Shown here in pieces: positions 4,062-18,706 of a stretch of 64,000 nt of DNA; position 1 is the first letter of the stretch; the number at the start of each line of letters is the position of its first letter. A program made the translations under genes and the position numbers. The notes under the pieces were generated by a model. The model ran no database searches. It was not told where the DNA came from and worked only from the letters and a program-made list of their open reading frames with translations. The DNA is from Gammaproteobacteria bacterium (GTDB lineage: Bacteria; Pseudomonadota; Gammaproteobacteria; GCA-001735895), in assembly GCA_047639625.1 (NCBI GenBank), contig JBLIOG010000001.1:169-64168 (forward strand). Reading direction: 5' to 3'.

Positions 4062-5056
4062 GCGATCATCGCCAGGGTTTCTCCACGCTCTATCAAACCT
4101 CGATTGTTATGGGCAAAAATAACACCCGAACAGGGAAAATATAAGGGCACAGAATTACGCTCCGGTTCTTCAATAAAGTGGATAAAACCAGCAGGATCAC
4201 CCGCGTTTACTTTGTCCCCAATATTGAAATTCCGATCAAACAATCCCGCTGACGGTGCCAGATAATTCTGTTCAGGTGCATTAAATTCCACCCACTGTGA
4301 GTCAGAACTCTCTTCGGCAATCGATTGACTGATAATTCCCAAATGATGAAGGCATCGTCTAATAGCGCGCTCGGCAAAGTCTGTCATTGCTGGATCACAA
4401 CCACCACCGCCACCCAACTCAGAAGCGATCATCGATACACCGTGTCGACCCGCCGCTGCATTTACCGAACGATTGTCATTTTGGGCCCCTGCTAACCAAA
4501 CGTATGGCGCCGCAAAAGCCCCGGCTAATGCTTTGTTTCTATGACCCACTTCGGTTGAGTTATCAACGCTGGTTAAAACACAGGGTGCGAAAATTGAGGC
4601 TTTACCACCACTGTGCAAATCGATCACGGCATCGCACTGAGATATGAGTATATCTTCAATAAACTGAGCCAGCATATGCGTCGGTCCTGCATCCATATCC
4701 CCAGGAAACGCCCGATTCATGTTGACTTGATCCAGCGGCGAAACCCGACTTGAAGACATCAACGCAGGTGCGTTCAGGGCTGGAATAATCAGGACTCTAC
4801 CTTTTATCTCATCCAGACTGAGAGTCTGCACAAGACGCATAAGAGCCGCGGGACCTTCGAATTCGTCGCCATGAACTCCTCCAGTTAAAAGCAGGGTTGG
4901 GCCCTCTGCATTAGAAAGACAAATAATGGGAACCGGATAAACGCCTAATGGCCGGCGATTATCCGACCACTTAATTTGCAAATCGCCAACCTGGCGTCCT
5001 TGTTGTTCCAGGTCTATTGTCATTCTAATTCGAGTAGGTGTTGCCGTTTTTATCAT
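4034..5056 (-). CDS. Succinylglutamate desuccinylase/aspartoacylase (AstE/AspA) family deacylase
   Basis: 340 aa carrying the GGVHGDEFEG zinc-binding motif of the AstE/AspA/DoeB family. Its 3' end overlaps soxG convergently. Confidence 0.7.
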   Translation of the reverse strand: MIKTATPTRIRMTIDLEQQGRQVGDLQIKWSDNRRPLGVYPVPIICLSNAEGPTLLLTGGVHGDEFEGPAALMRLVQTLSLDEIKGRVLIIPALNAPALMSSSRVSPLDQVNMNRAFPGDMDAGPTHMLAQFIEDILISQCDAVIDLHSGGKASIFAPCVLTSVDNSTEVGHRNKALAGAFAAPYVWLAGAQNDNRSVNAAAGRHGVSMIASELGGGGGCDPAMTDFAERAIRRCLHHLGIISQSIAEESSDSQWVEFNAPEQNYLAPSAGLFDRNFNIGDKVNAGDPAGFIHFIEEPERNSVPLYFPCSGVIFAHNNRGLIERGETLAMIAQSAHILEK

Positions 5057-5083
5057 TATTTTCTCAATGAATCATTATTTAAC

Positions 5084-5298
5084 AAGGTGATTAGCAAGCA
5101 CACTCAGTTCAAGCAGAGAATTAAACATCAAAGTATTGAATTCAAATGGGTTGTATTGCCTGCTTGTTATACACTTTTCCGCACCTAAATGATCAGTGTA
5201 TTCCATAGTGACTCCTCTATGGGGTACGAAACCATTGAACATGATTACCGCGAGTGACAATTAATTGTATCCTACTGAATTGTGTTGCTAATCACCTT
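5084..5298. repeat. Repeat family 1, copy A: MITE-like element with terminal inverted repeats
   Basis: Inverted repeats AAGGTGATTAGCAAGCACAC (5084-5103) and GTGTTGCTAATCACCTT (5282-5298). The core TTTTCCGCACCYAAATGATSASTRTATTCCATAGTGACTCC is shared with the copies at 13255-13486 and 16146-16503. Encodes the small ORF MEYTDHLGAEKC... on the minus strand with a GGAG Shine-Dalgarno. Confidence 0.6.
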
Positions 5299-5373
5299 TA
5301 ATAATTGAACTTATTATTAATCACAACAAACCATAATATTCCTGGAATTGAGTTACGGTAATTCACATCATGT

Positions 5374-6516
5374 GTGATATGGTACTTTAACCCTCTTACA
5401 GACACCATGCACCGAAAAATCACCTCCATGTCAGCTTTACGCCCCAAAAAAAGTATTGAGAAAATTAAGGCACATATGCTGTTGGCAGAAACTGATCAAT
5501 ATCCAGCCCCGCGAATTTTGCTGAATTCGAACGAAAGTGCTTTTGGCCCTTCAGTTAACGCTGTCAATGCAGCGACTGCTGCGGCTGCCGATTTATTTCG
5601 ATATCTCGAAAATCCGGCATCCCGTTTAGCCCCTGCTCTGGCTCAACGTTATCAGGTTGATCAAAAACGATTAACGGTCGGCAACGGATCAGATGATTTA
5701 CTGGCACGGTTAGCAAGGGTCTATCTCGAGCCCGGAACTGAAATGATCCGCAGCAAAAATGGTTATCTCAAGGCACCAAACTATGCCTTTGCCAACGGAG
5801 CTGAGCCGATTTCGGTCGAAGACGACGACTTGAAGCCTTCGGTTGATAACATTCTGGCCGCTGTTACTGACAAAACCCGAATGGTCTATCTGGCAAATCC
5901 TGAGAACCCTGCAGGAACCTATTTGAGCGGTTCTGAAATCAGACGATTGCACCAGTCGCTTCCAGGGGAAGTTTTACTCGTACTCGACTGCGCCTATGAA
6001 GAATACGTCGATGCCGAAGATTATGAGTCAGGTCAGCTGTTAGCCAGTATCGCCGACAATGTCGTAATGACTCGAACCTTCTCAAAGATTCACGGACTCG
6101 CGGGCGCCCGGGTTGGCTGGATGCTGGCCGCACCCGAAATCATCGACCTTGTTAATCGCATCGGCTTAACCTTTCCGTTGGCGAGTTGTTCAGTGGCCGC
6201 CGCATTAGCAGCATTGAAAGATAAACATCACCAGAAAACTGTGTTTGAAATAAACCGAAAACTACGCCAGCAATTTTCAGAAAAAATGACCCATGCTGGA
6301 TTAAAGGTTTACCCAAGCCAAACCAATTTCCAGCTTTTGAAATTTGAAAACCCAGACAAAACCGCAATCGGGTGTGAAGACTATTTATTAAAGCGAGGCA
6401 TTGTTATTCGGCGATTGGCTTCTCCGGCTTATCAAGACTGCATTCGGGTAACCATTGGCCTCGAATCACAAATGAAGATAGCCACCGAAGCCATAACGAG
6501 TTATCTCAATGCATAG
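5374..6516 (+). CDS. Class I/II PLP aminotransferase (histidinol-phosphate aminotransferase-like)
   Basis: LNSNESAFGPS N-terminal motif and overall HisC-family architecture. The true start may be an internal Met (MHRK at 5407 or MSAL at 5428). Confidence 0.8.
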   Translation: MIWYFNPLTDTMHRKITSMSALRPKKSIEKIKAHMLLAETDQYPAPRILLNSNESAFGPSVNAVNAATAAAADLFRYLENPASRLAPALAQRYQVDQKRLTVGNGSDDLLARLARVYLEPGTEMIRSKNGYLKAPNYAFANGAEPISVEDDDLKPSVDNILAAVTDKTRMVYLANPENPAGTYLSGSEIRRLHQSLPGEVLLVLDCAYEEYVDAEDYESGQLLASIADNVVMTRTFSKIHGLAGARVGWMLAAPEIIDLVNRIGLTFPLASCSVAAALAALKDKHHQKTVFEINRKLRQQFSEKMTHAGLKVYPSQTNFQLLKFENPDKTAIGCEDYLLKRGIVIRRLASPAYQDCIRVTIGLESQMKIATEAITSYLNA

Positions 6517-6518
6517 CC

Positions 6519-7052
6519 ATGGACAGCACTATGCCTTCTGCTGAAATCTTGTATCCCTCCGGACCTGGCATTATTGCCGAAATCAAAAAGGCAGGCGTTG
6601 AGTTCGTTATCTCTGTCCCTGATATTGTAACCAGCGAAGGTTTACTCTGGCCCCTGTCGAAAGATAATGAATTAAATCTGGTCCGTGTTTGCAAAGAAGA
6701 TGAAGGTGTCTCGATTTGTGGTGCCATGTCCTATAACAACACACGGGCCGTGTTACTCATGCAGCAAACGGGTCTGATGGATTCGCTAAACGCAATTCGA
6801 GCCATAGGAATGGACTATCAACTCCCTATATGCATGATGGTTGGCCTACAGGGTAAAGAACCCGAGCGTAAACCCGCAGAGTCAAATGCCTACGGGGTTT
6901 GGATCATAGAGCCGGTACTAAAAGCGATGGGAATAGAATATCGTCTCATTGAAGAACCCGATGATGTTAATCACATTGCTCAAGATATCGACCGTGCCTA
7001 TCGAAATTCTTCGGTATTCTGCTTCTTAATAGGGCGGTCACCAACACCATGA
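6519..7052 (+). CDS. comD: TPP-dependent decarboxylase alpha subunit (sulfopyruvate/phosphonopyruvate decarboxylase ComD-like)
   Basis: 177 aa with a TPP pyrimidine-binding N-domain. It is 3 bp from the aminotransferase and overlaps the beta subunit by 4 bp, the split arrangement typical of ComDE. Confidence 0.65.
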   Translation: MDSTMPSAEILYPSGPGIIAEIKKAGVEFVISVPDIVTSEGLLWPLSKDNELNLVRVCKEDEGVSICGAMSYNNTRAVLLMQQTGLMDSLNAIRAIGMDYQLPICMMVGLQGKEPERKPAESNAYGVWIIEPVLKAMGIEYRLIEEPDDVNHIAQDIDRAYRNSSVFCFLIGRSPTP

Positions 7053-7612
7053 GACGCGATCATGCTCTGGAAATACTGAAACATCATGTTAGTGATGAAA
7101 TCGTCGTTGCGGTTTATCAAACATTGTTCGACTGGATGGCTATTAATCCACGCGATTTAAATTATGTCGCCACCGGCGCCATGGGTCAGGCTTCTTCGCA
7201 TGGTTTAGGGCTTGCTCTGGCTAATCCTCAAAAAGAGGTTCTGGTTTTTGACGGCGATGGAAGTTTACTGATGAACCTGGGTTCGCTGGTCAGTGTCGCC
7301 AATGCCAAACCTGCTAACTTTCATCACTTTGTATTTGTTAATCGGGTTTATGAAGTGAATGGCGCGCACCCGATACCCGGTGCTGAATCGGTTGATTTTT
7401 CAGCCATGGCATCTGCTGCTGGCTACAAACAATCGGTTTCTTTCAGTAATATCGAAACTTTCGAATCAAACATCAGCGACTTCCTCGCGACACCCGGGCC
7501 ATCATTTGCAGCATTGTATATAGAAGCCGGGGATCCCTATCCGAGGGACTACGATTATATTCACAGCGCCGAGGCGAGGGATAAGTTTAGGCTGGCACTT
7601 GCATCGAGCTGA
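7049..7612 (+). CDS. comE: TPP-dependent decarboxylase beta subunit (ComE-like)
   Basis: 187 aa with the TPP-binding motif GDGSLLMNLGSLVSV...N (GDG-X24-N). Confidence 0.7.
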   Translation: MRRDHALEILKHHVSDEIVVAVYQTLFDWMAINPRDLNYVATGAMGQASSHGLGLALANPQKEVLVFDGDGSLLMNLGSLVSVANAKPANFHHFVFVNRVYEVNGAHPIPGAESVDFSAMASAAGYKQSVSFSNIETFESNISDFLATPGPSFAALYIEAGDPYPRDYDYIHSAEARDKFRLALASS

Positions 7613-8489
7613 ATTCTGTCTCGACCAACTCCAGAAATTCGTTCGCGACCGCAGTCATTGATTTTTGACGCGACCAGATTAAACAGCCGTTAAAACCAAT
7701 ATTGAGTGAAAAAGGTGCTGAAGATACTTCTTCTCCCGACCCGAATGAAGACCCCATCGAGACAATAATTGAAACGCCCAGCCCCTGTGCGACTAATCGA
7801 CAGATGGCATCGGTTGTTCGGGCTTCATACTTCAGGCTACGATCAACACTCGATTTTTTAAAAATATCATCCACTTCAAACCGAAACTGTGAATCGGGCA
7901 TATAGGAAACAAAACTTTCACCGGCAAGATCTTCCGGAGTAACCACGGCTTTACCTTCAAGTCGATGGCCAGGCGGGAAAACACAAATCGATTCTGTGTT
8001 CGTTAAAGGGTGACTGTTAACAGACGGATTGGCCAGGTTCGCCGGCGCTATGCCGAAATCAAAATTTTGCGAGACCATCCATTCGATTGCAACGTCGGTA
8101 GACTGGATTTCCAGTGATATCATTGCGTCTGGCTGCTTCTCGGAGAATTTACGAATGAGCTGTGGCGCGATTAACGTTGAAAATGCAGGTGTTGCGATCA
8201 ATCGCAATTGCGCATGTTTGAAATTCTTGATGGCGGTCGCGGTATGTTTGATTTGCTCAAGGCCACTCAGAGCCCGTCGTACTTCTTCAACCAGTAATAA
8301 CGCTTCCGGGGTCGCTTTCAAATTTCGACCGGAACGGGTAAACAATCGAAAACCAACCTGGCTCTCCAAATCCGATATCAAACGGCTGACGGCCGGCTGC
8401 GAAATATTCAGCATTCGAGCTGATTCGGTAACCGTACCGGTCTGTACGACCGTTTTGAAGGCGTCAATCTGGCGAAAAGTAATTTTCAA
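7587..8489 (-). CDS. LysR-family transcriptional regulator
   Basis: N-terminal HTH FRQIDAFKTVVQTGTVTESARMLNISQPAVSRLISDLE plus a C-terminal substrate-binding domain. Confidence 0.85.
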   Translation of the reverse strand: MKITFRQIDAFKTVVQTGTVTESARMLNISQPAVSRLISDLESQVGFRLFTRSGRNLKATPEALLLVEEVRRALSGLEQIKHTATAIKNFKHAQLRLIATPAFSTLIAPQLIRKFSEKQPDAMISLEIQSTDVAIEWMVSQNFDFGIAPANLANPSVNSHPLTNTESICVFPPGHRLEGKAVVTPEDLAGESFVSYMPDSQFRFEVDDIFKKSSVDRSLKYEARTTDAICRLVAQGLGVSIIVSMGSSFGSGEEVSSAPFSLNIGFNGCLIWSRQKSMTAVANEFLELVETEFSSMQVPA

Positions 8490-8501
8490 ATGATTATTCC
8501 A

Positions 8502-9584
8502 TCACTCGTTCGATTTCTCAGCTTTAATCCGAGCGGCCAGTTTCTTACGAAACATTTTTGAACCAATATCAAGCCGTAAATCCAGATTACCCGAACGGTT
8601 TTTGGACATACCCCGATGAACCGCTTCAAGGATAACCCGGTCTTCTTCAAATGCACCGCGCGCACCTTCATTCAGTTTTGCACGCGTTACTTCGTTATCG
8701 CCATCGGTATTGTAATTCTGAAACCAGTGGTACCGGGTATTTTCATGATCAATTGGCGTTATGAAGTGGTAGGACCGCATTCGATAACTGCCATCGGGTA
8801 AATCATTATCATTTCCGCCATGTCCTGATGGAGCATAACTACTCATATTAATCGCGATCGACGGCATAACCGCCTCGTAATACTGAAGACGATCGACCTT
8901 ACCTGAAAACGGCAACATGTCAGCATAGTAGGGCGGTGGATCAATATCATTAATCCAACGTGATACCAACACACCCGTATCGGTATCCTCGATTTTCAGC
9001 GCCACATCGTCGGTACCGGCAGAGGCAAACGAAGACTGATGAACCCATGCGACATGCGAAGGGTCGAGTAAATTATCGACCAGGTACAGATAATGGCATC
9101 GACATTCGATCATGCCACCATCGGTTAAACCCCAATGAGGATTATCGTAATCAGGCACGGATAAAATGTGGTTTTCATCGGCCAACTCAGGATCACCCAT
9201 CCAGATCCAGATTAGCCTGTACTTTTCGATGACCGGATATTGTCGAACCCAGGCATTGCTGGGGATTTTGCACTGTGTTGGTGATTCTACACATTTCCCT
9301 TTATGATCAAACTGCATACCGTGATAACCACAATGGACGACATCTTCAATCAGCGTTCCCATCGAAAGCGGTAATTTCCGATGCGGGCAGGCATCTTCCA
9401 GCGCAACCGGAAAGCCGGTGGAATGCCGGTACAGAAGAATATCTTCACCAAGTAACCGGACGGATTGCAGGTTCTCACCTAATGCATCAGATCGAATCGC
9501 AACATACCAGGCGTTTTCGAGAAAAAGGGAATCCCGGTTAATATAATTTGGACTGATACGCGCCATAACACTCTCGCAGGACAT
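8502..9584 (-). CDS. Rieske [2Fe-2S] non-heme iron oxygenase alpha subunit, VanA-like
   Basis: Rieske motif CPHRKLPL...CGYHGMQF and a VanA-type mononuclear-iron region (DNLLDPSHVAWVH). 360 aa. Confidence 0.8.
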   Translation of the reverse strand: MSCESVMARISPNYINRDSLFLENAWYVAIRSDALGENLQSVRLLGEDILLYRHSTGFPVALEDACPHRKLPLSMGTLIEDVVHCGYHGMQFDHKGKCVESPTQCKIPSNAWVRQYPVIEKYRLIWIWMGDPELADENHILSVPDYDNPHWGLTDGGMIECRCHYLYLVDNLLDPSHVAWVHQSSFASAGTDDVALKIEDTDTGVLVSRWINDIDPPPYYADMLPFSGKVDRLQYYEAVMPSIAINMSSYAPSGHGGNDNDLPDGSYRMRSYHFITPIDHENTRYHWFQNYNTDGDNEVTRAKLNEGARGAFEEDRVILEAVHRGMSKNRSGNLDLRLDIGSKMFRKKLAARIKAEKSNE

Positions 9585-9726
9585 ATAATATTTTCTAAAC
9601 CTGGACGCATGATATCATTGACAAAGCTATAGGTGTTGCGCAAACTGAATCCATTATTGAGTGTTTTATTCAATGTTTGCTCAATAGGTTCCAAAGATAA
9701 AAAATAAATAAGGAGGGGCCTGATCT

Positions 9727-10587
9727 GTGTCTTTAGACACCAGAACTGATTCGTACGATTTAGAAAAGCGTCGACGTCCTGTCGAAGTTTTCAGCCTGCC
9801 TCGTTTCTTTCAAATCGTTAGCCAAATCGGTTGGGCTATTCTGACCTTTGCAATCATCGGCTGGTTAATATGGAAAGGTGCATTGGCAATGGAGTACAAC
9901 TGGCAGTGGTATCGTGTCAGCCCCTTCTTTTATCGAATCATCGATGACGAACTAATCTTTGGACCACTTTACTGGGGGCTGATACAGACCCTGAAACTAG
10001 CCTCTGTTGCCGGAATTCTGGCGATCATAATCGGGTTCTTAACCGCCTTTGCGCGTATGTCGAATTCACGCGCTGGTGGTACTATTGCAACCTGGTATCT
10101 CGAAGCAATACGTAATACCCCGCTGATTGTTCAGTTATTTTTATTCTATTTTGTACTTGCGCCCATTTTAGGCATAGACCGATTCTGGTCCGGTGTGCTG
10201 TGTCTTGCATTCTTTGAAGGCTCTTTCGCCGCAGAGATTATTCGGGGTGGAATTCAAGGTGTTGATCGAGGTCAATTTGAAGCCGGTGATGCGATCGGGC
10301 TAACCACCTTTAACAAATACTGGCACATCGTCATACCGCAATCCATGCCTTTAATTTTACCACCCTTGACCGGTTTGCTGATTTCCCTGATTAAACATTC
10401 AGCCATCGTCAGTGTCATTGCCGTTTCCGAGCTGACAACCACAGGTTTGAATTTGATTTCAGATACCTTTATGGCATTCGAAATCTGGTTCATTATTGCA
10501 GGCATCTATCTAGTACTGACCATTTCGCTTTCTATCGGCGTCGGTCAACTGGAAAAGAAGCTCAACGTTACCCGAACGAGTAAATAA
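9727..10587 (+). CDS. Polar amino-acid ABC transporter permease (His/Glu/Gln/Arg/opine family)
   Basis: GTG start with an AAGGAGG Shine-Dalgarno. EAIRNTPLIVQLFLFYF permease signature and multiple TM segments. Confidence 0.85.
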   Translation: MSLDTRTDSYDLEKRRRPVEVFSLPRFFQIVSQIGWAILTFAIIGWLIWKGALAMEYNWQWYRVSPFFYRIIDDELIFGPLYWGLIQTLKLASVAGILAIIIGFLTAFARMSNSRAGGTIATWYLEAIRNTPLIVQLFLFYFVLAPILGIDRFWSGVLCLAFFEGSFAAEIIRGGIQGVDRGQFEAGDAIGLTTFNKYWHIVIPQSMPLILPPLTGLLISLIKHSAIVSVIAVSELTTTGLNLISDTFMAFEIWFIIAGIYLVLTISLSIGVGQLEKKLNVTRTSK

Positions 10588-10608
10588 ATCCTAAGGAGGA
10601 CAACACTC

Positions 10609-11421
10609 ATGACCATTAGTAAAATTTTTAAAACCTTAACAATGGCCGCTGCGATGCTGACGGTTTCAGGCGCTGCTTCAGCAGACCTGCTTACCGATAT
10701 TCAGAAACGTGGTGTTATGAAAGTCGGCATGGCAACTTTTGTTCCCTGGGCGATGCGTGACAAAAATGGAAACCTGATCGGTTTTGAAATCGATGTCGCC
10801 ACTAAAGTTGCCGAAGACATGGGTGTCAAAATCGAATTTGTTCCGACCGCCTGGAGCGGAATCATCCCCGCTTTGATCGCGAAGAAATTCGACCTGATCA
10901 TCGGTGGTATGTCGATTACTCCCCAACGTAATCTAACCGTGAACTTCACTGTTCCTTACGCGCATTCAGGGCAGCAAATGGCTGCTAATACAAAGTTGGC
11001 CAGCGGATTTGATTCGTTGGAAGATTTTAATAAGTCAAACGTTACTATCGCTTGCCGACGTGGTGCTACTCCCTGTAAAACCGCAAAAGATTTTTTCCCG
11101 AAAGCAACCGTTCGTCGATTTGACGACGATGCACAGGCTTTTCAGGAAGTTGTTAACGGTAACGCGCATGGTATGCTTTCCAGTGCTCCCAAGCCCCGTT
11201 TCTGGTCTGACGCTTATCCAGGCAAGGTATTCCTGCCTTTTGGTGAGAAAAACCTGACCAGAGGTGACGAAGCATTCGCAATGCGTAAAGGTGATCACGA
11301 TGCGCTTAACTTTTTCAGCAACTGGATTACCGTTAATACCAGTAATGGCTGGATCGGCAAAACGCATAATTACTGGTTCCAGGACCAATCTGCGTGGAAA
11401 GATATGGTTGCGCCTCAGTAG
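10609..11421 (+). CDS. Polar amino-acid ABC transporter substrate-binding protein
   Basis: Signal peptide MTISKIFKTLTMAAAMLTVSGAASA, family-3 SBP fold. AAGGAGG Shine-Dalgarno. Confidence 0.85.
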   Translation: MTISKIFKTLTMAAAMLTVSGAASADLLTDIQKRGVMKVGMATFVPWAMRDKNGNLIGFEIDVATKVAEDMGVKIEFVPTAWSGIIPALIAKKFDLIIGGMSITPQRNLTVNFTVPYAHSGQQMAANTKLASGFDSLEDFNKSNVTIACRRGATPCKTAKDFFPKATVRRFDDDAQAFQEVVNGNAHGMLSSAPKPRFWSDAYPGKVFLPFGEKNLTRGDEAFAMRKGDHDALNFFSNWITVNTSNGWIGKTHNYWFQDQSAWKDMVAPQ

Positions 11422-11509
11422 TTAAATAGATAGTTGATTAGAATTATGGGGCTGGAAGTGGAATTTTCGCAACCAGCCCCTGATTTTTCACCATCAATCA
11501 CTAAATAAA

Positions 11510-12415
11510 TTGGACAGAAACTCTCCCCCACCTGCAAAACCAAAACAGCCTCTTACGATCGTTGATTACCTGGTTTATGGTTTTGTCGCCCTGTTTATTT
11601 TTTATGCGGTATACCGGGTTAACGACGTTCTGGTTTACAACTGGAATTGGTCGAGGGTATTTGGATTTCTAGTCAAGTTTGACGAAGAAACTCAGTCCTG
11701 GGTTTCTAATCTGTTACTACAGGGGCTATGGACTACCTTACGACTGGCTGTCTGGGCCACAGTCTTCGCGACCATCGTTGGCGTCGTCATGGGATATTGG
11801 CGCACTTGCCAAAATCTGACACTACGCATCGTCAGCCGTTGCTATGTTGAATTTATTCGCAACTTGCCCCCACTTATTTTTATATTTATTTTTTACTTTT
11901 TTGTATCAAGTCAAATCTTCCCGGCCATGGGCATCGAAGACATCGATGTTGATGGTGCGATTGCATCCAGTGGTGTTTTCGAATTTATGTTTGGTGATCC
12001 GCGTCTTTTTTCAAATTTTCTTGCCGGCATGATCTGTCTGTCGCTTTTCGAGGGTGCCTATATCACCGAGATAGTTCGAGCCGGAATTCAGTCCACCGAT
12101 AAAGGTCAATGGGAAGCAGGAAAAGCTATCGGGTTGTCTCATTTTAATGTGCTGCGCGATATTGTTATCCCACAGGCAGTTAGAAAAATCCTTCCCCCAT
12201 TGGCAGGTCAATTCATTACACTGATCAAAGACTCTGCGATCATTTCACTCATTTCAATTCAAGAGCTGACTTTCGTCGCGACCGAAGTTGCGGCCACAAC
12301 CACGCGTGTTTTCGAAACCTGGATTCTGGTTGGATTTATGTACTTTGTACTTTGTTACAGTTTCGCCGTGTTTTTTGCCTATCTCGAAAGGCGCGCAAAA
12401 CGAAGTCAACGATAA
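11510..12415 (+). CDS. Polar amino-acid ABC transporter permease (second subunit)
   Basis: Paralogous permease carrying the EFIRNLPPLIFIFIFYF signature. Confidence 0.85.
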   Translation: MDRNSPPPAKPKQPLTIVDYLVYGFVALFIFYAVYRVNDVLVYNWNWSRVFGFLVKFDEETQSWVSNLLLQGLWTTLRLAVWATVFATIVGVVMGYWRTCQNLTLRIVSRCYVEFIRNLPPLIFIFIFYFFVSSQIFPAMGIEDIDVDGAIASSGVFEFMFGDPRLFSNFLAGMICLSLFEGAYITEIVRAGIQSTDKGQWEAGKAIGLSHFNVLRDIVIPQAVRKILPPLAGQFITLIKDSAIISLISIQELTFVATEVAATTTRVFETWILVGFMYFVLCYSFAVFFAYLERRAKRSQR

Positions 12416-12428
12416 CCGGATTTCATCA

Positions 12429-13184
12429 ATGTCTGAAAATAATACCTCGCAGCCGCTCGTAGAAATCACAGGATTGTGTAAGTGGTACGGCGATTTTAGT
12501 GCGCTATATGACATAAATCTTAAAGTTGCCCCAGGTGAAAAGGTGGTAGTTTGCGGGCCATCCGGATCGGGTAAGTCCACCATGATCCGCTGTATTAATC
12601 AGCTCGAAGAACACCAGGTCGGCACGATTATGGTTGATGGTCGTGAGGTTAAACCCGGGATGAAACAAATTGAAGAAATACGTCGTGAAGTCGGCATGGT
12701 ATTCCAGAGCTTCAATCTGTTTCCGCATATGTCGGTAGTCGATAATTTAACCATCGGGCCGATGCGTAACAAAGGCATCTCGAAAGCTGAAGCGACCGAA
12801 AGCGCAATGCACTTTCTAGAGCGTGTACACATTGCTGAACAGGCAGATAAATATCCTCCACAACTATCCGGAGGCCAGCAGCAAAGAGTAGCAATTGCCA
12901 GAGCTCTTTGTCTTAAACCCAAGATCATGCTGTTTGACGAGCCAACTTCTGCACTCGACCCGGAAATGATTGCCGGAGTTCTGGATGTCATGATCGAATT
13001 GGCCGAAGAAGGTATGACGATGATTTGTGTCACTCACGAGATGGGATTTGCACGCCGGGTTGCTGACCGTATTGTGTTTATGGATCATGGTGAAGTAGTA
13101 GAAGTTGCTGAACCGGAAGCCTTCTTTTCGAATGCACAAACCGATCGCGCAAAATTATTTTTGAGCCAGTTACTGGCTCATTGA
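12429..13184 (+). CDS. Polar amino-acid ABC transporter ATP-binding protein
   Basis: Walker A GPSGSGKST, ABC signature LSGGQQQRVAIARAL, Walker B MLFDEPTSALD. Start placed at the internal ATG 12429 to avoid overlapping the upstream permease. Confidence 0.85.
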   Translation: MSENNTSQPLVEITGLCKWYGDFSALYDINLKVAPGEKVVVCGPSGSGKSTMIRCINQLEEHQVGTIMVDGREVKPGMKQIEEIRREVGMVFQSFNLFPHMSVVDNLTIGPMRNKGISKAEATESAMHFLERVHIAEQADKYPPQLSGGQQQRVAIARALCLKPKIMLFDEPTSALDPEMIAGVLDVMIELAEEGMTMICVTHEMGFARRVADRIVFMDHGEVVEVAEPEAFFSNAQTDRAKLFLSQLLAH

Positions 13185-13254
13185 TATTGCTAACCCGATC
13201 AAATTACAATTAACTCAGGATATTTTGGGCCGCGGAAATAAGTAGTAACCCCAT

Positions 13255-13486
13255 CTTGTTTGTTTGTTTTTTGACCCAGCTTCTGAGTTGTATTGGCTGT
13301 CTGTTAAACATTTTTCCGCACCCAAATGATGACTGTATTCCATAGTGACTCCCTCCATGGGGTATGTCTCACTTTTGAAGCCCCAAAAGTAAGCAAAATG
13401 GCTCACACCATCGAGAGCGGCCTACGGCTTCCCGTCAAGAGAGTTGCTATAAATTGAGGCCTGCTGAATTATGTTGCTCATCAACA
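13255..13486. repeat. Repeat family 1, copy B
   Basis: Shares the core CATTTTTCCGCACCCAAATGATGACTGTATTCCATAGTGACTCCCTCCATGGGGTA with copies A and C. Small ORF MEYSHHLGAEKCLTDSQYN... on the minus strand. The right arm (CTGCTGAATTATGTTGCTCATCAAC) overlaps the last codons of the amidase gene. Confidence 0.5.
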
Positions 13487-14784
13487 TTATTCATCACCCC
13501 GACCCTTAACTGACCCTCTATCCACTGCGCCGCTGCCAGTAATTTGTCGTCCTGATTAATCGCGCCTACCAACTGAACTGAAAGGGGTAGTCCATTTGGC
13601 CCCTGTCCAAACGGAACCGAAATACAGGGCACCTGTAACAAATTCCAGGCCCGACTGAAAAGAGGATCACCCGTTGCCCCCAGCCCTGCAGGTGCTTCAC
13701 CCGGAGCTGCTGGCGTCAAAATAACATCGGCTTCAAGAAACATAGTTTGTAATATTCTGTTTGCTCTATCTCTCGCCAGGCAGCCATCAACATAGTCTGC
13801 ACGCGAAACTTCCAGACCGGTTTCGAACAAGTCTCGAAACTGAGGGCTAATTTCATCTCGATAATGGTTGTACTCATATACGCGAGACCTCGCCACTTCA
13901 AACGCCATTACTGTTTTTTGATGCTCAGTTAATTCTAGAAATGATTCAGGGCAGGCAAGTTCACCGGTCACAGCGCCCGCATTTGAGAGTTGTTTCATTG
14001 CCCTCTGGCAGACATCACGCATTTCCATCGAACCTTCATTCCAATGGGGACCACGAAACAACGATATTCGTAATGGTCGGTTTTCATGATCAATCGCATC
14101 GGCAGGCTGGCTTTTACACAACACAGAACGTGCGAGTTCAAAGTCTTCAATTTGTCTGGCCAAAAAACCCAGAGTATCCAGACTTGGTGATAAAGACATG
14201 ATCCCCTGTAGATCAAAACTTCCATGACTGGCCTTATATCCTGGAATACCACAATAAGCAGCCGGCCGGATTAACGACGCAGCGGTCTGTGAGCCGAATG
14301 CAAACGGTAGCATACAATCCGCAACTGCCGCTGCTGAACCGCTGGATGATCCACCAGGCGTATGTTCCAGCTTATTCGGATTCGCTGTTTTTCCCGGTTT
14401 GAAATAGGCAAACTCGGTGGTCACTGTTTTACCGACCAGAATGGCACCCGCCTGCAGGAATAATTCGACACAACTGGCATTACGCCCAGCACTATATCCC
14501 TTGTAAAACTCTGTGCCCCATTCAGTCGTGAATCGCTCGGTGTCGATGATATCTTTCGCGGCGAAAGGTATCCCGTGAAGTGCTCCCGTAATTTCCTTTC
14601 GATCAGCCCGTCGGGCAGATTCCAACGCGGCCTCTTCATCAATATCATTAAATGCACCGACATCAATTTCCCGCTGCTGGACGCGATCAAGACAATCTGT
14701 CATCACTGCTTCGGCAGAAATTTCTCGGGTAGAAATTTTCCGCGCTAGTTCGGCCATCCCTAATTCATTCAGTTTTGTTTTCAC
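13447..14784 (-). CDS. Amidase (amidase-signature family, GatA-like)
   Basis: 445 aa with the AS motif GGSSSGSAAAVA and the catalytic Ser-cisSer-Lys region. Confidence 0.85.
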   Translation of the reverse strand: MKTKLNELGMAELARKISTREISAEAVMTDCLDRVQQREIDVGAFNDIDEEAALESARRADRKEITGALHGIPFAAKDIIDTERFTTEWGTEFYKGYSAGRNASCVELFLQAGAILVGKTVTTEFAYFKPGKTANPNKLEHTPGGSSSGSAAAVADCMLPFAFGSQTAASLIRPAAYCGIPGYKASHGSFDLQGIMSLSPSLDTLGFLARQIEDFELARSVLCKSQPADAIDHENRPLRISLFRGPHWNEGSMEMRDVCQRAMKQLSNAGAVTGELACPESFLELTEHQKTVMAFEVARSRVYEYNHYRDEISPQFRDLFETGLEVSRADYVDGCLARDRANRILQTMFLEADVILTPAAPGEAPAGLGATGDPLFSRAWNLLQVPCISVPFGQGPNGLPLSVQLVGAINQDDKLLAAAQWIEGQLRVGVMNNVDEQHNSAGLNL

Positions 14785-14787
14785 TAT

Positions 14788-15993
14788 TTAATGACCATCC
14801 AGTTCGGCAATCGCCGCTTCAAAAACGGTAGCCGGCATATCGTAAATACCTCCACCCAAACGGCCTACAGCCCCCTCGTTATCGAGTATGCCCAATGCGA
14901 TCACCGGTCCACGCCCATAAGCGACTACAGATCGAGCAGATATCCCCAGTCGACAATTAAGTGATCCAAACGCCGGATGCTGACCCATCAATAGCGACTG
15001 CGTTCTAAGGTCAAAATCTTCGGGTAAAAATTCGCCAAGCGCATCGAGTTGTCCGGGAGATAAACGAATAGCCATGGCACCAAGACCCAACCCTTCCACT
15101 ACCGCACTATCTCCAATCGCTGGCAAGCCTCGACTGACAGGCAAATCGACATCAAATCGACCAACCGGAGCGGTTGCACTAGAAGAAAACCAATGTCCGG
15201 GGAGAGCTGAAATCTGAATCCCCGTTTCAACACCGTTACCACCCGCAGCAATAACAAAACTGGAGCCGCCAACCCCGGCAGCACGGGTCATAATGCATTT
15301 GCTGGCAGCCATCCACAAATTAAGAAACAGGCTGGGGGACCGTCCTATAAAATCACGGGTTTTTTCATCAAACTGCTTACCGGGTATCGCCTGTTCAACT
15401 TTCGCCATTAATAATTTTGTGGCATGCGGCGTTCGGCCATGACAGTCATCACCTTCTGCTAACCCGGCAGCGGCTAATGGCAACATTTCGTATGAACTTG
15501 TTAGTGCTTCGTTCAATAAATCAGCAAAGAAACTGTTCAACCAACGTATATGATTCAATACTGATTCAGATCTTAAACCCAATCTGAGAGACGGTGCGCC
15601 TCCTCCATTAATAGGAGCATATATTTTGATATCAGATTGATTTTCATCAATAACCCGATGAAGTGGCATAGAGGCACTGACGACGGCCGCCAGCGGCGTA
15701 ACGACTGAATGATCCTGAGCCGGTTTAAGTTGAATTTCTCCAGCCTTTATCATCGATTCGGCCTGGCCGAAGTTCTTTGCCAAACCTTCAAATACTGCCG
15801 CCACGCAGGCCGAATTTAAGATCGGCATAGAAATAGCATCAATAGATTTAAACGCTGGCCCAGCATGTAATAAAACATGTTCGGGGATCTTGAAAGCATG
15901 AGCACCCGATTCGATTCCATCCCAAACCGGATCGGCTAATAGAGCCTGTTCGAATGAAAGTTGATCGGCATTATCTAAAACAGAATTACTCAT
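14788..15993 (-). CDS. Uncharacterized protein, DUF1116/YlbE-like (co-operonic with amidase)
   Basis: 401 aa. Motifs LLHAGP, VVSASMPL and IGDSAVVEGLGLGAMAI resemble the E. coli YlbE family as I recall it. Stop lies 3 bp from the amidase start. Confidence 0.45.
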   Translation of the reverse strand: MSNSVLDNADQLSFEQALLADPVWDGIESGAHAFKIPEHVLLHAGPAFKSIDAISMPILNSACVAAVFEGLAKNFGQAESMIKAGEIQLKPAQDHSVVTPLAAVVSASMPLHRVIDENQSDIKIYAPINGGGAPSLRLGLRSESVLNHIRWLNSFFADLLNEALTSSYEMLPLAAAGLAEGDDCHGRTPHATKLLMAKVEQAIPGKQFDEKTRDFIGRSPSLFLNLWMAASKCIMTRAAGVGGSSFVIAAGGNGVETGIQISALPGHWFSSSATAPVGRFDVDLPVSRGLPAIGDSAVVEGLGLGAMAIRLSPGQLDALGEFLPEDFDLRTQSLLMGQHPAFGSLNCRLGISARSVVAYGRGPVIALGILDNEGAVGRLGGGIYDMPATVFEAAIAELDGH

Positions 15994-16145
15994 CTGATGG
16001 CTCCTCGGGGGACGTTACAATTTATATAGGGCTCAATAAATCACGAAAAATTAATTTCCTGAAAACTTTATATTGTCAAACAGTGTTAAATATTATCCTA
16101 ACCGGCTTATTGCATAAAGGAGCATTAGGGCTACGGAAATAAATA

Positions 16146-16503
16146 AAGTGAATAGCAACAATATTCAGCGGGATACAATCAATTGTCACCCATGTGCAAT
16201 CGTTTCGCACCCTTAATGCTACTTCATTTCATAGCAGGGCTCTCGGCAGGGTACGCCTTACTTTTCCTACAGCAGAAAAGTAAGCAGGGTTGCTCCTGCG
16301 CAGAGCCTGCCCCGTGAGCACAGCGAATGCTTTGGGTATCCCTGCGTCCACGACATGCCGTTCATCATAGAGGGAGTCACTATGGAATATAGTCATCATT
16401 TGGGTGCGGGAAAATGTTCAGCAAACAGATCATGTAACCCAGTTGAATTCTATACATGGATATTTAATGTCCAGCTTGAACTGGGTGTTCTTCCCAATCA
16501 CTT
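16146..16503. repeat. Repeat family 1, copy C (opposite orientation, carrying a nested family-2 repeat)
   Basis: Ends AGTGAATAGCAACAAT (16147-16162) and TTCCCAATCACTT (16491-16503) match the copy-A inverted repeats. Core GAGGGAGTCACTATGGAATATAGTCATCATTTGGGTGCGGGAAAATG. Small ORF MEYSHHLGAGKC... on the plus strand, upstream of the TMADH-like gene. Confidence 0.55.
16215..16335. repeat. Repeat family 2 copy nested inside family-1 copy C
   Basis: GCAGGAGCA...CTGCCGAGAGCC blocks are shared with 21585-21750 and 61375-61600. Contains a perfect 10-bp hairpin CTTACTTTTC-N8-GAAAAGTAAG. Confidence 0.45.
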
Positions 16504-16636
16504 AAAGTGTTATCCGATCTTGCTTGTTGTCCCTTAAACTTCTACGTATACGACTGCCCTGTCATCATGGGCGAGACAGTATTAAGATGGTTACTTATTC
16601 CAGAAACAATGTTAATACGAAGGCAAGATACAAACT

Positions 16637-18706
16637 ATGAGTGAACGAGATCCACGATACGACGTTCTGTTTGAACCCGTTAGAATTGGCCCAGTTACGG
16701 CCCCTAATCGATTTTACCAGGTGCCACACTGTACTGGCCTTGGCTGGCTTCGACCTCGCACCGTTGCTCAGGTCCGCGGAATGAAAGCCGAGGGCGGTTG
16801 GGGTGTTGTCTGCACCGAATACTGTTCGATTCATCCGGCTTCGGATGACTTGCCTCATCCTTATGCGTCGCTCTGGGATGACGGTGACATCAAGGCACAC
16901 CGGCTAATGACCGACGCCGTACATGAACATGGTTCGCTGGCTGGCGCAGAGCTCTGGGTTGGCGGCGCACGATCAACTAATCTGTTTACTAATGAAGTTT
17001 CGATGGATGTCGCCCATATGCCGAATTCAATTGGCATTCCGTATCAGACCCGGGCGATGGATCGATCCGATATTCGTGAATTACGGCGCTGGCATCGAAA
17101 TGCTGCCTTGCGGGCAAAAGCAGCAGGCTTTGATATCGTTTATGTCTACGCCACGCATCACTATCTTTTATCTCACTTTTTATCCGCTGAGACCAATACT
17201 CGAACCGATGAATATGGCGGTTCACTTGAAAACAGGGTTCGACTCATTCGTGAATTAATCGAAGAAACAAAAGATGCGGTGGGCGATACCTGTGCTGTTG
17301 CGGTCAGATTTTCTGCCGACCAAACCAAAAATGGGAGCGGTGATCCGATTATTGGTGAACACCGTGACATGATTGAAATGCTGGCTGAACTCCCTGACCT
17401 GTGGGATATCAATATTCAGGACTACTCGCGTGAGATGGGCGTATCCCGGTTTATCAAGGAAGCTTCGCTCGAAGCCTATATGTCTTACGTCAAAACGATC
17501 ACCACAAAACCTGTCGTATCAGTTGGGCGGTTTACCTCTCCGGATACCATGATCTCGCAGATCAACCGCGGAATTGTTGATTTTATAGGTGCTGCAAGGC
17601 CATCCATCGCTGATCCTTTCTTGCCTAAAAAAATAAAAGAAGGTCGACTCGATGAAATTCGAGAATGTATCGGCTGCAATAACTGTTATGTTGGTGACAG
17701 TAAAGGAACACCTTTTCGTTGCACCCAAAACCCGACTATTGGAGAAGAGTGGCGACGTGGCTGGCACCCTGAAAAGATAGCCGCAAAAGGATCTGACTCT
17801 ACAGTTCTGGTTGTGGGTGCCGGACCTGCAGGACTCGAAGCAACTCGAGCACTTGGATTACGGGGATATCAGGTTTTACTCGCCGAAGCGGAACGTGAAC
17901 TTGGAGGACGAGTAACGCGTGAAGCGAAGTTTCCCGGACTAAGCGAATGGGCCCGGGTTCGCGATTATCGAGTACAGCAAATTCAACGCATGCCCAATGT
18001 AGACATTTATCTCGAAAATCGAATGACGTTAGAAGATGTGCTGGCAATGGAGGCCGATCATATCGCGATTGCGACGGGATCGACCTGGCTCAGAGACGGT
18101 AAAGGTTTGCATCACACGGTGGCCATTGAAAATTTTGGCCCTGCGGATCAAATCTTTTCACCTGACGATATTATGGCAGGGCGATTGCCAACAGGATCCA
18201 CCGTTATATTCGATGATGACCACTATTATCTGGCCAGTGTTATTGCCGAAGTTTTGCGTGAGAAAAACATCCCGGTTACTTTGGTAACGCCCGAAGTCAA
18301 AGTATCGGCCTGGTCGGCCAATACCTCTGAGCAGTATCAAATTCACAGAAGACTCGCCGATGTTGGTGTAGAGATTGTCACTGGACACGGCTTAGTTTCA
18401 TTTAATGGCTCACAGGCCGAGATCCAATGTGTTTATACCGATTCACCCAAAACAATTAAAGCTGAAGCCGTTGTCACGGTTACCATGCGAAATCCGAATG
18501 ATGCTTTGTTTCGGTCGCTGAAAAATCATTACGCAACCAATGCCGATACTGGGCCAATTTCACTCAGTCGAATAGGCGACTGCGAGGCACCCTCAATCAT
18601 TGCTGGCAATGTTTTTTCCGGTCATAGATATGCCCAGGAACTCGATGCCGACATTGATGTTGATAAGCGCATTAAATTCGACCGGATATTTTTTAACGAT
18701 GACTGA
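16637..18706 (+). CDS. Trimethylamine/dimethylamine/histamine dehydrogenase-family flavoprotein (OYE-like TIM barrel + 4Fe-4S + ADP-binding domain)
   Basis: 689 aa. N-terminus MSERDPRYDVLFEPVRIGPVTAPNRFYQVPHCTGLG closely matches the TMADH N-terminus, including the Cys for 6-S-cysteinyl-FMN. Also the CIGCNNC Fe-S motif and VVGAGPAGLEA. Confidence 0.8.
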   Translation: MSERDPRYDVLFEPVRIGPVTAPNRFYQVPHCTGLGWLRPRTVAQVRGMKAEGGWGVVCTEYCSIHPASDDLPHPYASLWDDGDIKAHRLMTDAVHEHGSLAGAELWVGGARSTNLFTNEVSMDVAHMPNSIGIPYQTRAMDRSDIRELRRWHRNAALRAKAAGFDIVYVYATHHYLLSHFLSAETNTRTDEYGGSLENRVRLIRELIEETKDAVGDTCAVAVRFSADQTKNGSGDPIIGEHRDMIEMLAELPDLWDINIQDYSREMGVSRFIKEASLEAYMSYVKTITTKPVVSVGRFTSPDTMISQINRGIVDFIGAARPSIADPFLPKKIKEGRLDEIRECIGCNNCYVGDSKGTPFRCTQNPTIGEEWRRGWHPEKIAAKGSDSTVLVVGAGPAGLEATRALGLRGYQVLLAEAERELGGRVTREAKFPGLSEWARVRDYRVQQIQRMPNVDIYLENRMTLEDVLAMEADHIAIATGSTWLRDGKGLHHTVAIENFGPADQIFSPDDIMAGRLPTGSTVIFDDDHYYLASVIAEVLREKNIPVTLVTPEVKVSAWSANTSEQYQIHRRLADVGVEIVTGHGLVSFNGSQAEIQCVYTDSPKTIKAEAVVTVTMRNPNDALFRSLKNHYATNADTGPISLSRIGDCEAPSIIAGNVFSGHRYAQELDADIDVDKRIKFDRIFFNDD

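Follow-up and report, generated by a model that had tools for sequence, protein, structure and literature searches.

A small family of probably non-coding, MITE-like intergenic repeats in an uncultured gammaproteobacterium

Three intergenic sequences in the window (the whole 64,000-nt stretch of DNA that was analyzed) belong to a dispersed repeat family of at least five members. We regard it, with a probability of roughly 60%, as a lineage-restricted family of MITE-type or intergenic repeats that are small, non-coding and non-autonomous. An open reading frame runs through every copy, yet it bears no sign of selection on a protein, which favors an ordinary selfish repeat over a new regulatory system. 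The repeats are MITE-like and thus of a known kind, while the family itself has no match in Rfam, Pfam or NCBIfam and is known so far only from one uncultured marine-type gammaproteobacterium.

Results

The initial annotation had described three intergenic copies with a common core, here termed A, B and C, and shuffles and BLASTN both place their similarity far above chance. The core GTCACTATGGAATAYNNNNNNCATTTRGGTGCGG matches at 5179-5212 (minus strand), 13316-13349 (minus) and 16376-16409 (plus), where 100 shuffles gave an expectation of 0, and the 5' arm GTGATTAGCAACANAATTCAG is common to all three copies at no more than two mismatches (chance expectation 0.03). Pairwise identity amounts to 87% over 69 nt (A-B), 78% over 129 nt (A-C) and 84% over 77 nt (B-C), with BLASTN E-values of 1e-26, 3e-21 and 1.5e-19 among the three copies. 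The spacer between 5' arm and core measures ca. 40 nt in A, ca. 95 nt in B and ca. 180 nt in C. The positions originally given for A and C stand; for B, homology covers ca. 13284-13493 rather than 13255-13486, and bases 13255-13283 match no other copy.

A HMMER profile of the small open reading frame (ORF) recovered two further copies, D (P0243, on L026) and E (P0244, on L027), whose cores and arms were confirmed with nhmmer and BLASTN. GenBank locus tags (ACI845_000006, ACI845_000113 and ACI845_000667) assign A, D and E to one metagenome-assembled genome (MAG). Since D and E lie on other contigs of this MAG, the family has at least five members, a count that is a lower bound within a single MAG. 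Chance likeness can thus be dismissed: the initial annotation had made its reading depend on there being copies beyond the three loci and on these retaining the ORF, and D and E exist with the frame open. Copies A and C occupy divergent spacers at gene starts, while B, D and E occupy convergent spacers at gene 3' ends and have no co-oriented downstream gene. The neighborhoods of all five comprise amidase, OpuAC/ABC transporter, deacylase, arginase and amine-oxidoreductase gene clusters. Segmental duplication is ruled out, as the amidases adjoining B and E are only 29% identical. Three of the five copies fall within 11.4 kb of one catabolic island (p ~0.06 if positions are random; 76 kb of contig).

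Copy A (5084-5298, minus strand) is the shortest complete element at 215 nt, comprises a 5' arm, a short spacer, the core and a 3' arm, and is identical in sequence across three independent Logan assemblies. It lies between the deacylase start codon (5056) and a native control block outside the element (5332-5385) in the divergent aminotransferase/deacylase spacer. This block, GGTACCATATCACA...CTCAATTCCAGnAATATTAT, is conserved at four syntenic loci (L016, L019, L028 and L029) from which copy A is absent; the relatives concerned (L016-18, L019, L028 and L029/30) have deacylases of 65-70% identity. The block marks ancestral sequence, and A inserted on its deacylase side: the distance from block to deacylase ATG is 275 nt with A versus 62-69 nt in the relatives, and subtracting the 215 nt of A leaves 60 nt. 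Copy A is accordingly a discrete insertion whose removal restores the spacing. Its 3'-end arm (5084-5108) pairs with its 5'-end arm (5274-5298), which overlaps a sigma-70-like site (5291->5264, ORF strand). These terminal inverted repeats (TIRs), AAGGTGATTAGCAAGCACACTCAGT / ACTGAATTGTGTTGCTAATCACCTT, span 25 nt at 80% complementarity (20/26 by a second comparison), and A folded as RNA is predicted to form a terminal stem of ca. 25 bp (z = -5.0). Both A and C had been described as bounded by matching TIRs, which holds for A; the repeat of C is weak, at 16/26.

Copy C (16146-16503, plus strand; 358 nt), the longest of the family, occupies the divergent spacer that separates the AllG-like from the TMADH-like gene. 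Its 5' arm (16141-16191, plus) is followed by a spacer module also present in E (16192-16234), by a GC-rich 118-nt segment, X (16249-16366, minus), with the hairpin CTTACTTTT..AAAAGTAAG, and by the core and 3' arm (16357-16503, plus). Compared with its counterpart in copy D (L026 211-325) and with the fragment that B retains, segment X runs here in the opposite direction: positions 160-277 of C align with 325-211 of D at 84% over 118 nt (E = 5e-32), and the junction between X and core is the same in C and D. A and E have no X, D has it in forward orientation, B has a part of it and C has it inverted, so that the copies make up a patchwork. Segment X was not found alone outside the main element in the sequence reached, so its independent mobility is a candidate only. 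The TIRs of C and E are weaker than those of A, the RNA fold of C reaches z = -3.35, and D has no 5' arm.

Copy B (13284-13493, minus strand) is a truncated element in the convergent spacer between an ABC ATPase gene and the amidase gene; in the syntenic relative L016, a different gene directly follows the ABC ATPase gene. The copy retains the 5' arm (13441-13493, minus), a spacer that includes the final 37 nt of segment X (13359-13395), and a core region that carries codons 1-20 of the ORF (13284-13368, minus), and has lost its 3' half and 3' arm. The amidase gene (13447-14784, minus) ends within the 5' arm of B, which encodes its ca. 15 terminal codons together with the stop (13447-13491). 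Amidase homologs (L008, L010-L013) end aligned with ...QWIEGQLRVGV, whereas the amidase in the window continues with MNNVDEQHNSAGLNL. The alignment bears out the earlier suspicion that the insertion remodeled this gene: the 5' arm replaced the stop codon and added ca. 15 residues, creating the C-terminal extension at the element junction.

The ORF initially reported, which begins MEY..HLG..KC.., stays open throughout the family. In A it spans 5075-5206 (minus strand; 43 aa, MEYTDHLGAEKCITSRQYNPFEFNTLMFNSLLELSVLANHLVK; GenBank hypothetical protein MFT5503750.1, ACI845_000006) and stops 18 nt upstream of the deacylase ATG. In B it spans 13215-13343 (minus; 42 aa), with codons 1-20 homologous and the remainder drawn from unrelated flanking DNA. 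The ORF of C (16382-16537, plus; 51 aa, MEYSHHLGAGKCSANRSCNPVEFYTWIFNVQLELGVLPNHLKCYPILLVVP), which the source annotation does not call, runs for its last 10 codons beyond the element and stops 100 nt before the TMADH-like ATG. The Shine-Dalgarno (SD) sequence described for all copies is real and invariant in position in all five; it reads GGGAG in C and GGAG in A, and the gap to the ATG is 5 nt (TCACT in A) rather than the 7 nt first given. A PADLOC scan of four of the ORFs returned no result.

Conservation is highest in the internal core around SD and ATG (86-95% identity) and lower at the termini. Synonymous sites of codons 1-12 are conserved too, which points to constraint on nucleotides and not on a protein. 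The proposed dN/dS check for coding constraint yielded a neutral pattern: values are 0.75-0.96 in five of six pairs against 0.42-1.10 in shifted frames, with 0.41 reached by A-C only (p = 0.064), and variable columns distribute 18:17:17 over the codon positions. In A, C, D and E the core and ORF part is free of indels and the frame stays open for 40-41 codons; most other frames contain 3-6 stop codons. Four open frames are only marginally unusual (probability 0.04-0.07 in a neutral simulation), and shuffling copy A produces an ORF of 41 codons or more with an ATG start in 17.5% of cases. The stop position differs in each copy and lies in flanking DNA. Gene callers annotated three of the five ORFs; no homolog outside the MAG was found among 1.84 billion representative proteins, and no Pfam or NCBIfam family matched (for the ORF of A, none at E<=1). 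With dN/dS no better than in shifted frames and the ORF leaving the element, the proposals of a conserved small protein, a leader peptide or a mobile upstream ORF lose their footing. The orientation of A and C toward downstream genes, initially noted, is uninformative, because in divergent spacers either orientation faces a gene. The placement of copies at gene starts and gene ends alike makes a dedicated leader or upstream-ORF role unlikely.

The core contains an inverted repeat, CCATAG-N8/9-CTATGG, predicted to form a hairpin with the SD in the loop and the ATG in the stem, and a palindrome, ACAATTAATTGT, lies in the 5' arm. Among 21 predicted pairs none was compensatory (covariation term +1.36), and Rfam gave no match even at E<=5. 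A promoter-like site in A (TTAGCA-16-TACAAT) is not above shuffle expectation; B and E do not preserve its -10 hexamer, and no such site is listed for C. No conserved antisense promoter was found among the copies.

The initial suggestion of a MITE fares well as to insertion, dispersed copies and the TIRs of A, C and E. A consistent target-site duplication was not found; strict MITE status is therefore unproven and the class is given as MITE-like. By inspection, most termini have a TA dinucleotide 0-5 nt further out, in a register that is not fixed. Neither a parent insertion sequence nor a transposase with matching ends turned up in ca. 107 kb of the MAG. For an element that depends on a transposase, it is unusual that the core should be better conserved than the ends.

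Discussion

One alternative is that the repeat is a mobile small-protein gene or upstream ORF that combines a promoter, an SD and a frame of 40-50 codons. Translation of the frame, or its peptide, would then matter, and could, for instance, couple to or gate translation of the deacylase (18 nt past the stop in A) or of the TMADH-like gene. The invariant SD within the best-conserved stretch, the indel-free frame (20 homologous codons in B), the stop-rich alternative frames, the low A-C dN/dS and the three annotated ORFs are in its favor. The neutral dN/dS of the other five pairs, flat codon positions, conserved synonymous sites, shifting stops, the frequency of such ORFs in shuffles, the missing co-oriented gene in B, D and E and the lack of any homolog or family match weigh more heavily, and we consider this reading unlikely. 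Alternatively, the copies might form a shared cis-regulatory module, an operator/promoter or a leader RNA of riboswitch-like type whose duplication places several amine/osmolyte operons of the catabolic island under one regulator. The functions of the adjoining gene clusters, several LysR genes nearby, the two palindromic motifs and the promoter-like site in A agree with this. However, in four relatives the orthologous control region functions in the absence of the element and has a conserved block of its own that lies beyond the element, three of five copies sit at gene 3' ends, covariation and Rfam matches are absent, the promoter-like site is at chance level, and 78-90% similarity over 130-150 nt far exceeds the needs of an operator; such a module is very unlikely.

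The arrangement of B and C raises a different possibility, namely that they bound a composite unit with which the AllG-like/amidase pair arrived, or that they are scars left where recombination between copies reshuffled the island. The two copies are mutually inverted with 5' arms inward and bracket the two-gene module (13447-15993) exactly; the pair travels together in distant bacteria; both copies lie at synteny breaks, with other genes after the ABC ATPase in L016 and a different neighborhood around the closest TMADH homologs; and the amidase stop codon is fused to B. Yet B has no outward-facing 3' arm, so that the second outer end is missing, no GC anomaly crosses the module, A, D and E are solitary, and the relatives at hand are too distant to show an empty site for the whole unit. 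We regard this history as quite unlikely. A type I toxin-antitoxin-like or small-RNA locus, with a start region conserved for antisense pairing and an mRNA locked by end pairing, would account for multiple intergenic copies, nucleotide-level conservation centered on SD and ATG, the pairing of 5' and 3' ends in A and the core hairpin. Against it stand a peptide without a clear transmembrane helix as read from its sequence, the absence of compensatory changes, of a Pfam or NCBIfam toxin match and of a conserved antisense promoter, and the need to transcribe the 5' arm although the only promoter-like site lies there, which together render it extremely improbable.

For the preferred reading, an intergenic selfish repeat, the basic unit is copy A (ca. 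215 nt), with an imperfect TIR consensus (A)AGGTGATTAGCAAC..AATTCAG, a sub-terminal palindrome after the 5' arm and a highly conserved internal core CCCCATAGAGGGAGTCACTATGGAATA...CATTTGGGTG. A transposase acting in trans would have mobilized it, and at least five copies would have inserted in A/T-rich intergenic DNA of this one uncultured gammaproteobacterium. The copies have since diverged by 17-25% and decayed by truncation, with loss of the 3' arm in B and of the 5' arm in D, while spacers were rearranged as the 118-nt hairpin segment X was gained, lost and inverted. Copy A may now lie within the deacylase 5' leader, in which case a long foldback and a fortuitous upstream ORF would be part of the deacylase mRNA. 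By analogy with ORFs that pass through ERIC/RU-type repeats, SD, ATG and ORF would be a by-product of the element sequence rather than a selected protein.

Bacterial MITEs (PMC10969869, PMC3184786) resemble this family in their small size (215-358 nt here), lack of a transposase, imperfect TIRs, strong foldback, A/T-rich intergenic sites, several dispersed copies, presence or absence between related genomes, internal sigma-70-like hexamers and truncated or rearranged copies. The present family differs in that neither could a target-site duplication be demonstrated nor a parent insertion sequence found, in its very low number of known copies (five) and in a core better conserved than its termini. 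The composite copies recall pneumococcal BOX/RUP/SPRITE clusters, in which small repeats are nested into patchworks (cited in PMC10969869), whereas segment X was never met as a separate repeat away from the main element in the sequence reached. Correia elements (CREE) of Neisseria are likewise small (100-155 nt), have inverted repeats of ca. 26 nt and often lie just upstream of genes; promoters, transcription into foldback RNA and inversion have been reported for them (PMC10969869). They differ in their defined TA duplication, their IHF site and a copy number in the hundreds, features not shown for the present family, which in turn has the conserved SD-ATG core and the ORF. At the termini, the Correia sequence TATAGTGGATTAACAAAAACC agrees with the family terminus AAGGTGATTAGCAACACAA at ca. 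11 of 19 positions, a lead only.

E. coli genomes carry ERIC copies, and a BLASTN search with copy C against 5,426 E. coli genomes, used to assess similarity to ERIC, gave no match. ERIC and RU-1, RU-2 and RU-3 are enterobacterial intergenic repeats of 100-170 nt with a long stem (Delihas 2007, PMC2759123). They share with the present family the intergenic location, the long-stem foldback and an open frame through the unit that is able to fuse to genes, and differ in host lineage and in lacking the variable internal spacer and the X segment. By this comparison, bacterial MITE-like repeats with through-reading ORFs have precedent: in Erwinia, an ERIC/RU-1 copy eliminated an amidase stop codon and lengthened the protein at its C-terminus (PMC2759123), in parallel with the amidase extension at copy B.

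Results

The initial annotation had described three intergenic copies of a MITE-like repeat that carry a small ORF, and this description of the copies proved accurate. A 34-nt degenerate pattern of the core, the internal stretch around the Shine-Dalgarno (SD) sequence and the ATG, matched exactly three times in the window against 0 expected, and a 21-nt motif of the 5' arm occurred three times against 0.03 expected. The copies are termed A (5084-5298, minus strand), B (13284-13493, minus strand) and C (16146-16503, plus strand). Their pairwise identities were 87% over 69 nt (A-B), 78% over 129 nt (A-C) and 84% over 77 nt (B-C), with BLASTN E-values of 1e-19 to 1e-26. The ORFs, beginning MEY..HLG..KC.., were likewise as described; corrections concerned details, namely that copy A has GGAG instead of GGGAG, that the gap between SD and ATG is 5 nt, and that the terminal inverted repeat (TIR) of copy C is weak (16/26).

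Counting copies beyond the window, as the annotation had proposed, extended the family to at least five members. An HMMER profile of the ORF searched against 1.84 billion representative proteins returned two new small proteins, P0243 (MEYRCHLGVEKCLANRQSSILEFYTLILNFQLELSILANHL...) and P0244 (MKYNHLLGEDKCFANRQSNTFELYSLIINFQIGLSIRADH), whose contigs hold full DNA homologs of core and arms; its other matches, P0245 and P0246, were low-complexity noise. The first belongs to copy D, beside an arginase/M20/DDAH operon (locus L026, ~211-463), the second to copy E, flanked by a further amidase gene and an OpuAC gene (locus L027, ~9875-10122). GenBank locus tags (ACI845_000006 for A, then ACI845_000113 and ACI845_000667) place A, D and E in one MAG, labeled "Gammaproteobacteria bacterium", with the locus-tag prefix ACI845, giving five copies on three contigs. 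No further copy was present in the window's contig over positions 1-76,327. A word-indexed protein search with the ORF alignment returned the query copies only, and D and E surfaced solely in the unindexed HMMER search. In both B and E, the element immediately follows an amidase gene and its 5' arm adjoins the stop codon (window 13447-14784, minus strand; L027 8418-9863, plus strand), which could reflect coincidence or target preference. Segmental duplication of a copy together with its amidase gene was rejected, as these two enzymes share only 29% identity.

Copies measure 215-358 nt, contain no ORFs other than those of 40-62 codons, and are built in the order 5' arm, variable spacer, core, 3' arm. 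The TIR of copy A spans 25 nt at 80% complementarity (or 20/26), and that of copy E reaches ~15/23 in a hand alignment; copy B lacks the 3' arm, being cut off after ORF codon 20, and copy D lacks the 5' arm. The spacer of copy A is ~40 nt long. That of copy E includes an extra 33-nt module, which also occurs in C, together with a nearly perfect 46-nt palindrome directly interior to the 5' arm (L027 9888-9933, ATAATTACCATGGATAACTATT / AATAGTTATGCATGGTAATTAT, self-match 95.7%), of which A and C have only a degenerate form, ACAATTAATTGT. In copy D the core is directly preceded by a 118-nt GC-rich segment, termed X, that contains the hairpin CTTACTTTT..AAAAGTGAG. Copy B has just the final 37 nt of this segment, and in copy C the segment is inverted (window 16249-16366 against L026 325-211, 84% over 118 nt, E = 5e-32) with the same X-core junction as in D; free-standing X was not seen elsewhere in the sequence searched. 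The best-conserved stretch of the element is the SD-ATG region, and that an internal core is conserved better than the termini is odd for a transposase-dependent element.

Copies A, B and C all lie within a catabolic island. It opens with sarcosine-oxidase genes, followed by genes for an AstE/AspA-type deacylase (4034-5056, minus strand), an aminotransferase (5374 or 5407 to 6516, plus strand), a TPP-dependent enzyme encoded by two overlapping genes (6519-7052 and 7049-7612, plus strand), a LysR regulator, a Rieske/VanA oxygenase and an amino-acid ABC transporter (9727-13184, plus strand), and then by the amidase gene (13447-14784, minus strand), an AllG-like gene (14788-15993, minus strand) and the gene for a TMADH-like flavoprotein (16637-18706, plus strand). 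The first half of the TPP enzyme (177 aa) has no Pfam match and the second (187 aa) contains a TPP_enzyme_C domain; the split is kept in all syntenic relatives, which indicates a true two-subunit arrangement and not a frameshift. Elsewhere in the window, a group II intron D1-D4 fragment (37979-38119, minus strand; Rfam RF02003, 64 bits, E = 9e-12) adjoins an ORF (38304-39626, plus strand) in which no reverse-transcriptase domain was found, and the fragment therefore looks orphan or degraded. The window also corresponds to bases 3327-67326 of the JGI metagenome contig Ga0535667_0000122 (86,482 bp, 45.6% GC, sample 3300054976).

For copy A, comparison with relatives provided evidence of insertion. 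The nearest deacylase homologs are only 65-70% identical, and the same gene order around the deacylase gene is found in four relatives (L016-18, L019, L028 and L029/30). Between the aminotransferase and deacylase genes, a block of ~55 nt, GGTACCATATCACA...CTCAATTCCAGnAATATTAT (window 5332-5385), is kept in five lineages including that of the window; it probably represents the native operator and promoters for the neighboring LysR regulator. From this block to the deacylase ATG, the distance is 62-69 nt in the four relatives versus 275 nt in the window, made up of 60 nt and the 215-nt element, and nhmmer detected no trace of core or arm in any relative. The absence of copy A from four relatives and the restored spacing show that the element entered the window's lineage. 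Copy A sits downstream of this ancestral control block and, judged from this position, most likely lies inside the deacylase leader.

Copies B and C are mutually inverted with their 5' arms pointing inward, and they bracket exactly the AllG-like/amidase pair, two genes that are also paired in distant bacteria. The suggestion that copy B remodeled the C-terminus of the amidase was borne out: the last ~15 codons and the stop codon of the gene come from the 5' arm of B, and amidase homologs stop at the residues that align with ...QWIEGQLRVGV. The AllG-like loci found in GTDB genomes reach no more than 59% identity, lack the element and inform only on this amidase C-terminus. A close precedent comes from Erwinia, in which an ERIC/RU-1 repeat is fused to an amidase (PMC2759123). 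On the transporter side, other genes directly follow the ABC ATPase gene in the relative L016, and their homologs are absent from the whole window. The closest TMADH homologs (80-81% identical) always occur after a 696-aa paralog and before a 155-aa gene, both of which are missing in the window; that the TMADH-like gene stands alone, whereas its homologs have constant neighbors, indicates a rearranged locus. Because these homologs are not syntenic, they offer no empty site for copy C, and presence/absence at an orthologous site is documented for copy A only. Repeat involvement in the reshuffling of the catabolic island is possible. The island adds another case of small repeats at the seams of a rearranged catabolic region, here in an uncultured gammaproteobacterium whose nearest sampled relatives show 65-70% protein identity.

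Discussion

Our preferred interpretation, with a probability of about 0.6, is that the copies form a MITE-like family of intergenic repeats that is confined to one lineage, low in copy number and decaying. In common with MITEs, they are small and devoid of a transposase gene, have terminal inverted repeats (A, C and E) and occur as several dispersed copies in one genome, and the insertion of copy A is evident from its absence in relatives. The MITE assignment of the initial annotation holds to this extent, yet strict membership is not proven, as neither target-site duplications nor a parent insertion sequence were found. Inspection of all termini by eye revealed no convincing duplication of 2-9 bp, and no direct repeat is placed in a fixed register at A, C or E. 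Most ends have a TA dinucleotide at a distance of 0-5 nt on their outer side, within A/T-rich flanks; the relatives' empty sites have diverged too far to reveal the exact target sequence. No autonomous insertion sequence with matching ends, (A)AGGTGATTAGCAA, was found in ~107 kb of the MAG. As to known repeats, no similarity to ERIC/RU-type elements emerged when copy C was compared by BLASTN (word size 11) with all complete E. coli genomes, and BLASTN against plasmids and phages likewise gave no match. The core pattern matched nothing in GTDB representative genomes, JGI metagenome contigs and IMG/VR, nor did the 5'-arm pattern in metagenome contigs. The collections scanned by pattern lacked even the window's own contig, meaning that the organism is absent there and that these scans say little about distribution.

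Whether the MEY... frame is a translated upstream ORF or a small protein, as the initial annotation had considered under the terms leader peptide and mobile upstream ORF, bears directly on this interpretation. SD and ATG are invariant across copies and lie in the best-conserved stretch, 147 nt of core and ORF are free of indels in A, C, D and E, and the frame is open in every copy while most other frames contain 3-6 stop codons. The substitution pattern nevertheless argues against coding, with no sign of purifying selection on amino acids: dN/dS reaches 0.41 in the A-C pair alone (10 synonymous and 20 non-synonymous changes, p = 0.064) and lies at 0.75-0.96 in the remaining five pairs, shifted frames give similar values (0.42-1.10), and variable columns are spread evenly over the codon positions (18:17:17). 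Openness is itself unusual only to a marginal degree: all four copies stayed open in 4-7% of neutral simulations that began at the consensus and introduced as many changes as were observed. In shuffles of copy A, an ORF with an ATG start and 41 codons or more arose in 17.5% of cases. Moreover, the stop codon falls at a different position in each copy's flank, the ORFs have no Pfam or NCBIfam match, and no homolog outside the MAG was found by HMMER among the 1.84 billion representative proteins. A translated product is thus unlikely, and the frame is probably incidental to the repeat.

An antisense frame, M(M)[TI]VFHSDSL[YH]G... (5189-5257, plus strand; 13326-13457, plus strand; 16229-16399, minus strand), is open in every copy as well, without an upstream SD, illustrating that open frames come easily in this element. 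The idea that the element is the ancestral 5' portion of some larger gene or of a transposase was rejected because no longer protein among the 1.84 billion representatives has this start. The practical value of these results lies mainly in annotation: the GenBank hypothetical proteins MFT5503750.1, MFT5502338.1 and MFT5502796.1 are most likely repeat read-through frames and not genes, the amidase at 13447-14784 bears an element-derived tail of ~15 residues, and the deacylase leader probably contains a 215-nt foldback missing in relatives. Should the frame prove to be maintained, it would be a handy example of an ORF held open without amino-acid constraint.

Copy A as RNA forms a fold closed by the TIR stem (z = -5.0). 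For the core, whose RNA folding the initial annotation had proposed, RNAalifold of the five copies yielded compensatory changes at 0/21 predicted pairs, and its covariation term was positive. Because the CCATAG..CTATGG hairpin that surrounds the SD does not vary, it argues in neither direction. At the gathering score, Rfam identified no family in the copy regions, where only noise appeared at E<=5, and in the absence of both a match and covariation a riboswitch or sRNA was rejected. A LysR T-N11-A box in the core was also rejected, as by our own reading the CCATAG..CTATGG spacing departs from the canonical box. The 5' arm of A contains a TTAGCA-16-TACAAT site that lies within shuffle expectation and whose -10 hexamer, as we read the sequences, is not retained in B and E. 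The placement of the copies with respect to genes is inconsistent: A and C occupy divergent spacers, in which each orientation points toward a gene, and B, D and E occupy convergent spacers, next to the 3' ends of genes. Relatives control the same genes although they lack the element.

On a more elaborate reading, the element would be a mobile cassette for expression that contains its own switch; the outcome would be an upstream ORF that is both transposable and phase-variable and rewires catabolic operons. The SD-ATG core would start a short ORF, and the act of translation instead of the peptide would control the downstream gene; X, forward in D, inverted in C and directly against the core in both, would be flipped in vivo to turn the cassette on or off, and contig breaks inside copy C would fit a mixed population with both X orientations. 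We regard such a cassette as very improbable and favor the decaying family of MITE-like repeats.

Contigs of two other, independent assemblies from the same population (loci L003 and L002) terminate within copy C, one at window position 16301, in X, and the other at 16447, immediately past the core. Breaks induced by the repeat, low coverage or a mixture of X orientations in the population could explain such ends. Misassembly through the repeat is unlikely, since the longest exact runs common to the copies are ~20 nt, below usual assembler k-mer sizes, and copy A is identical in four assemblies.
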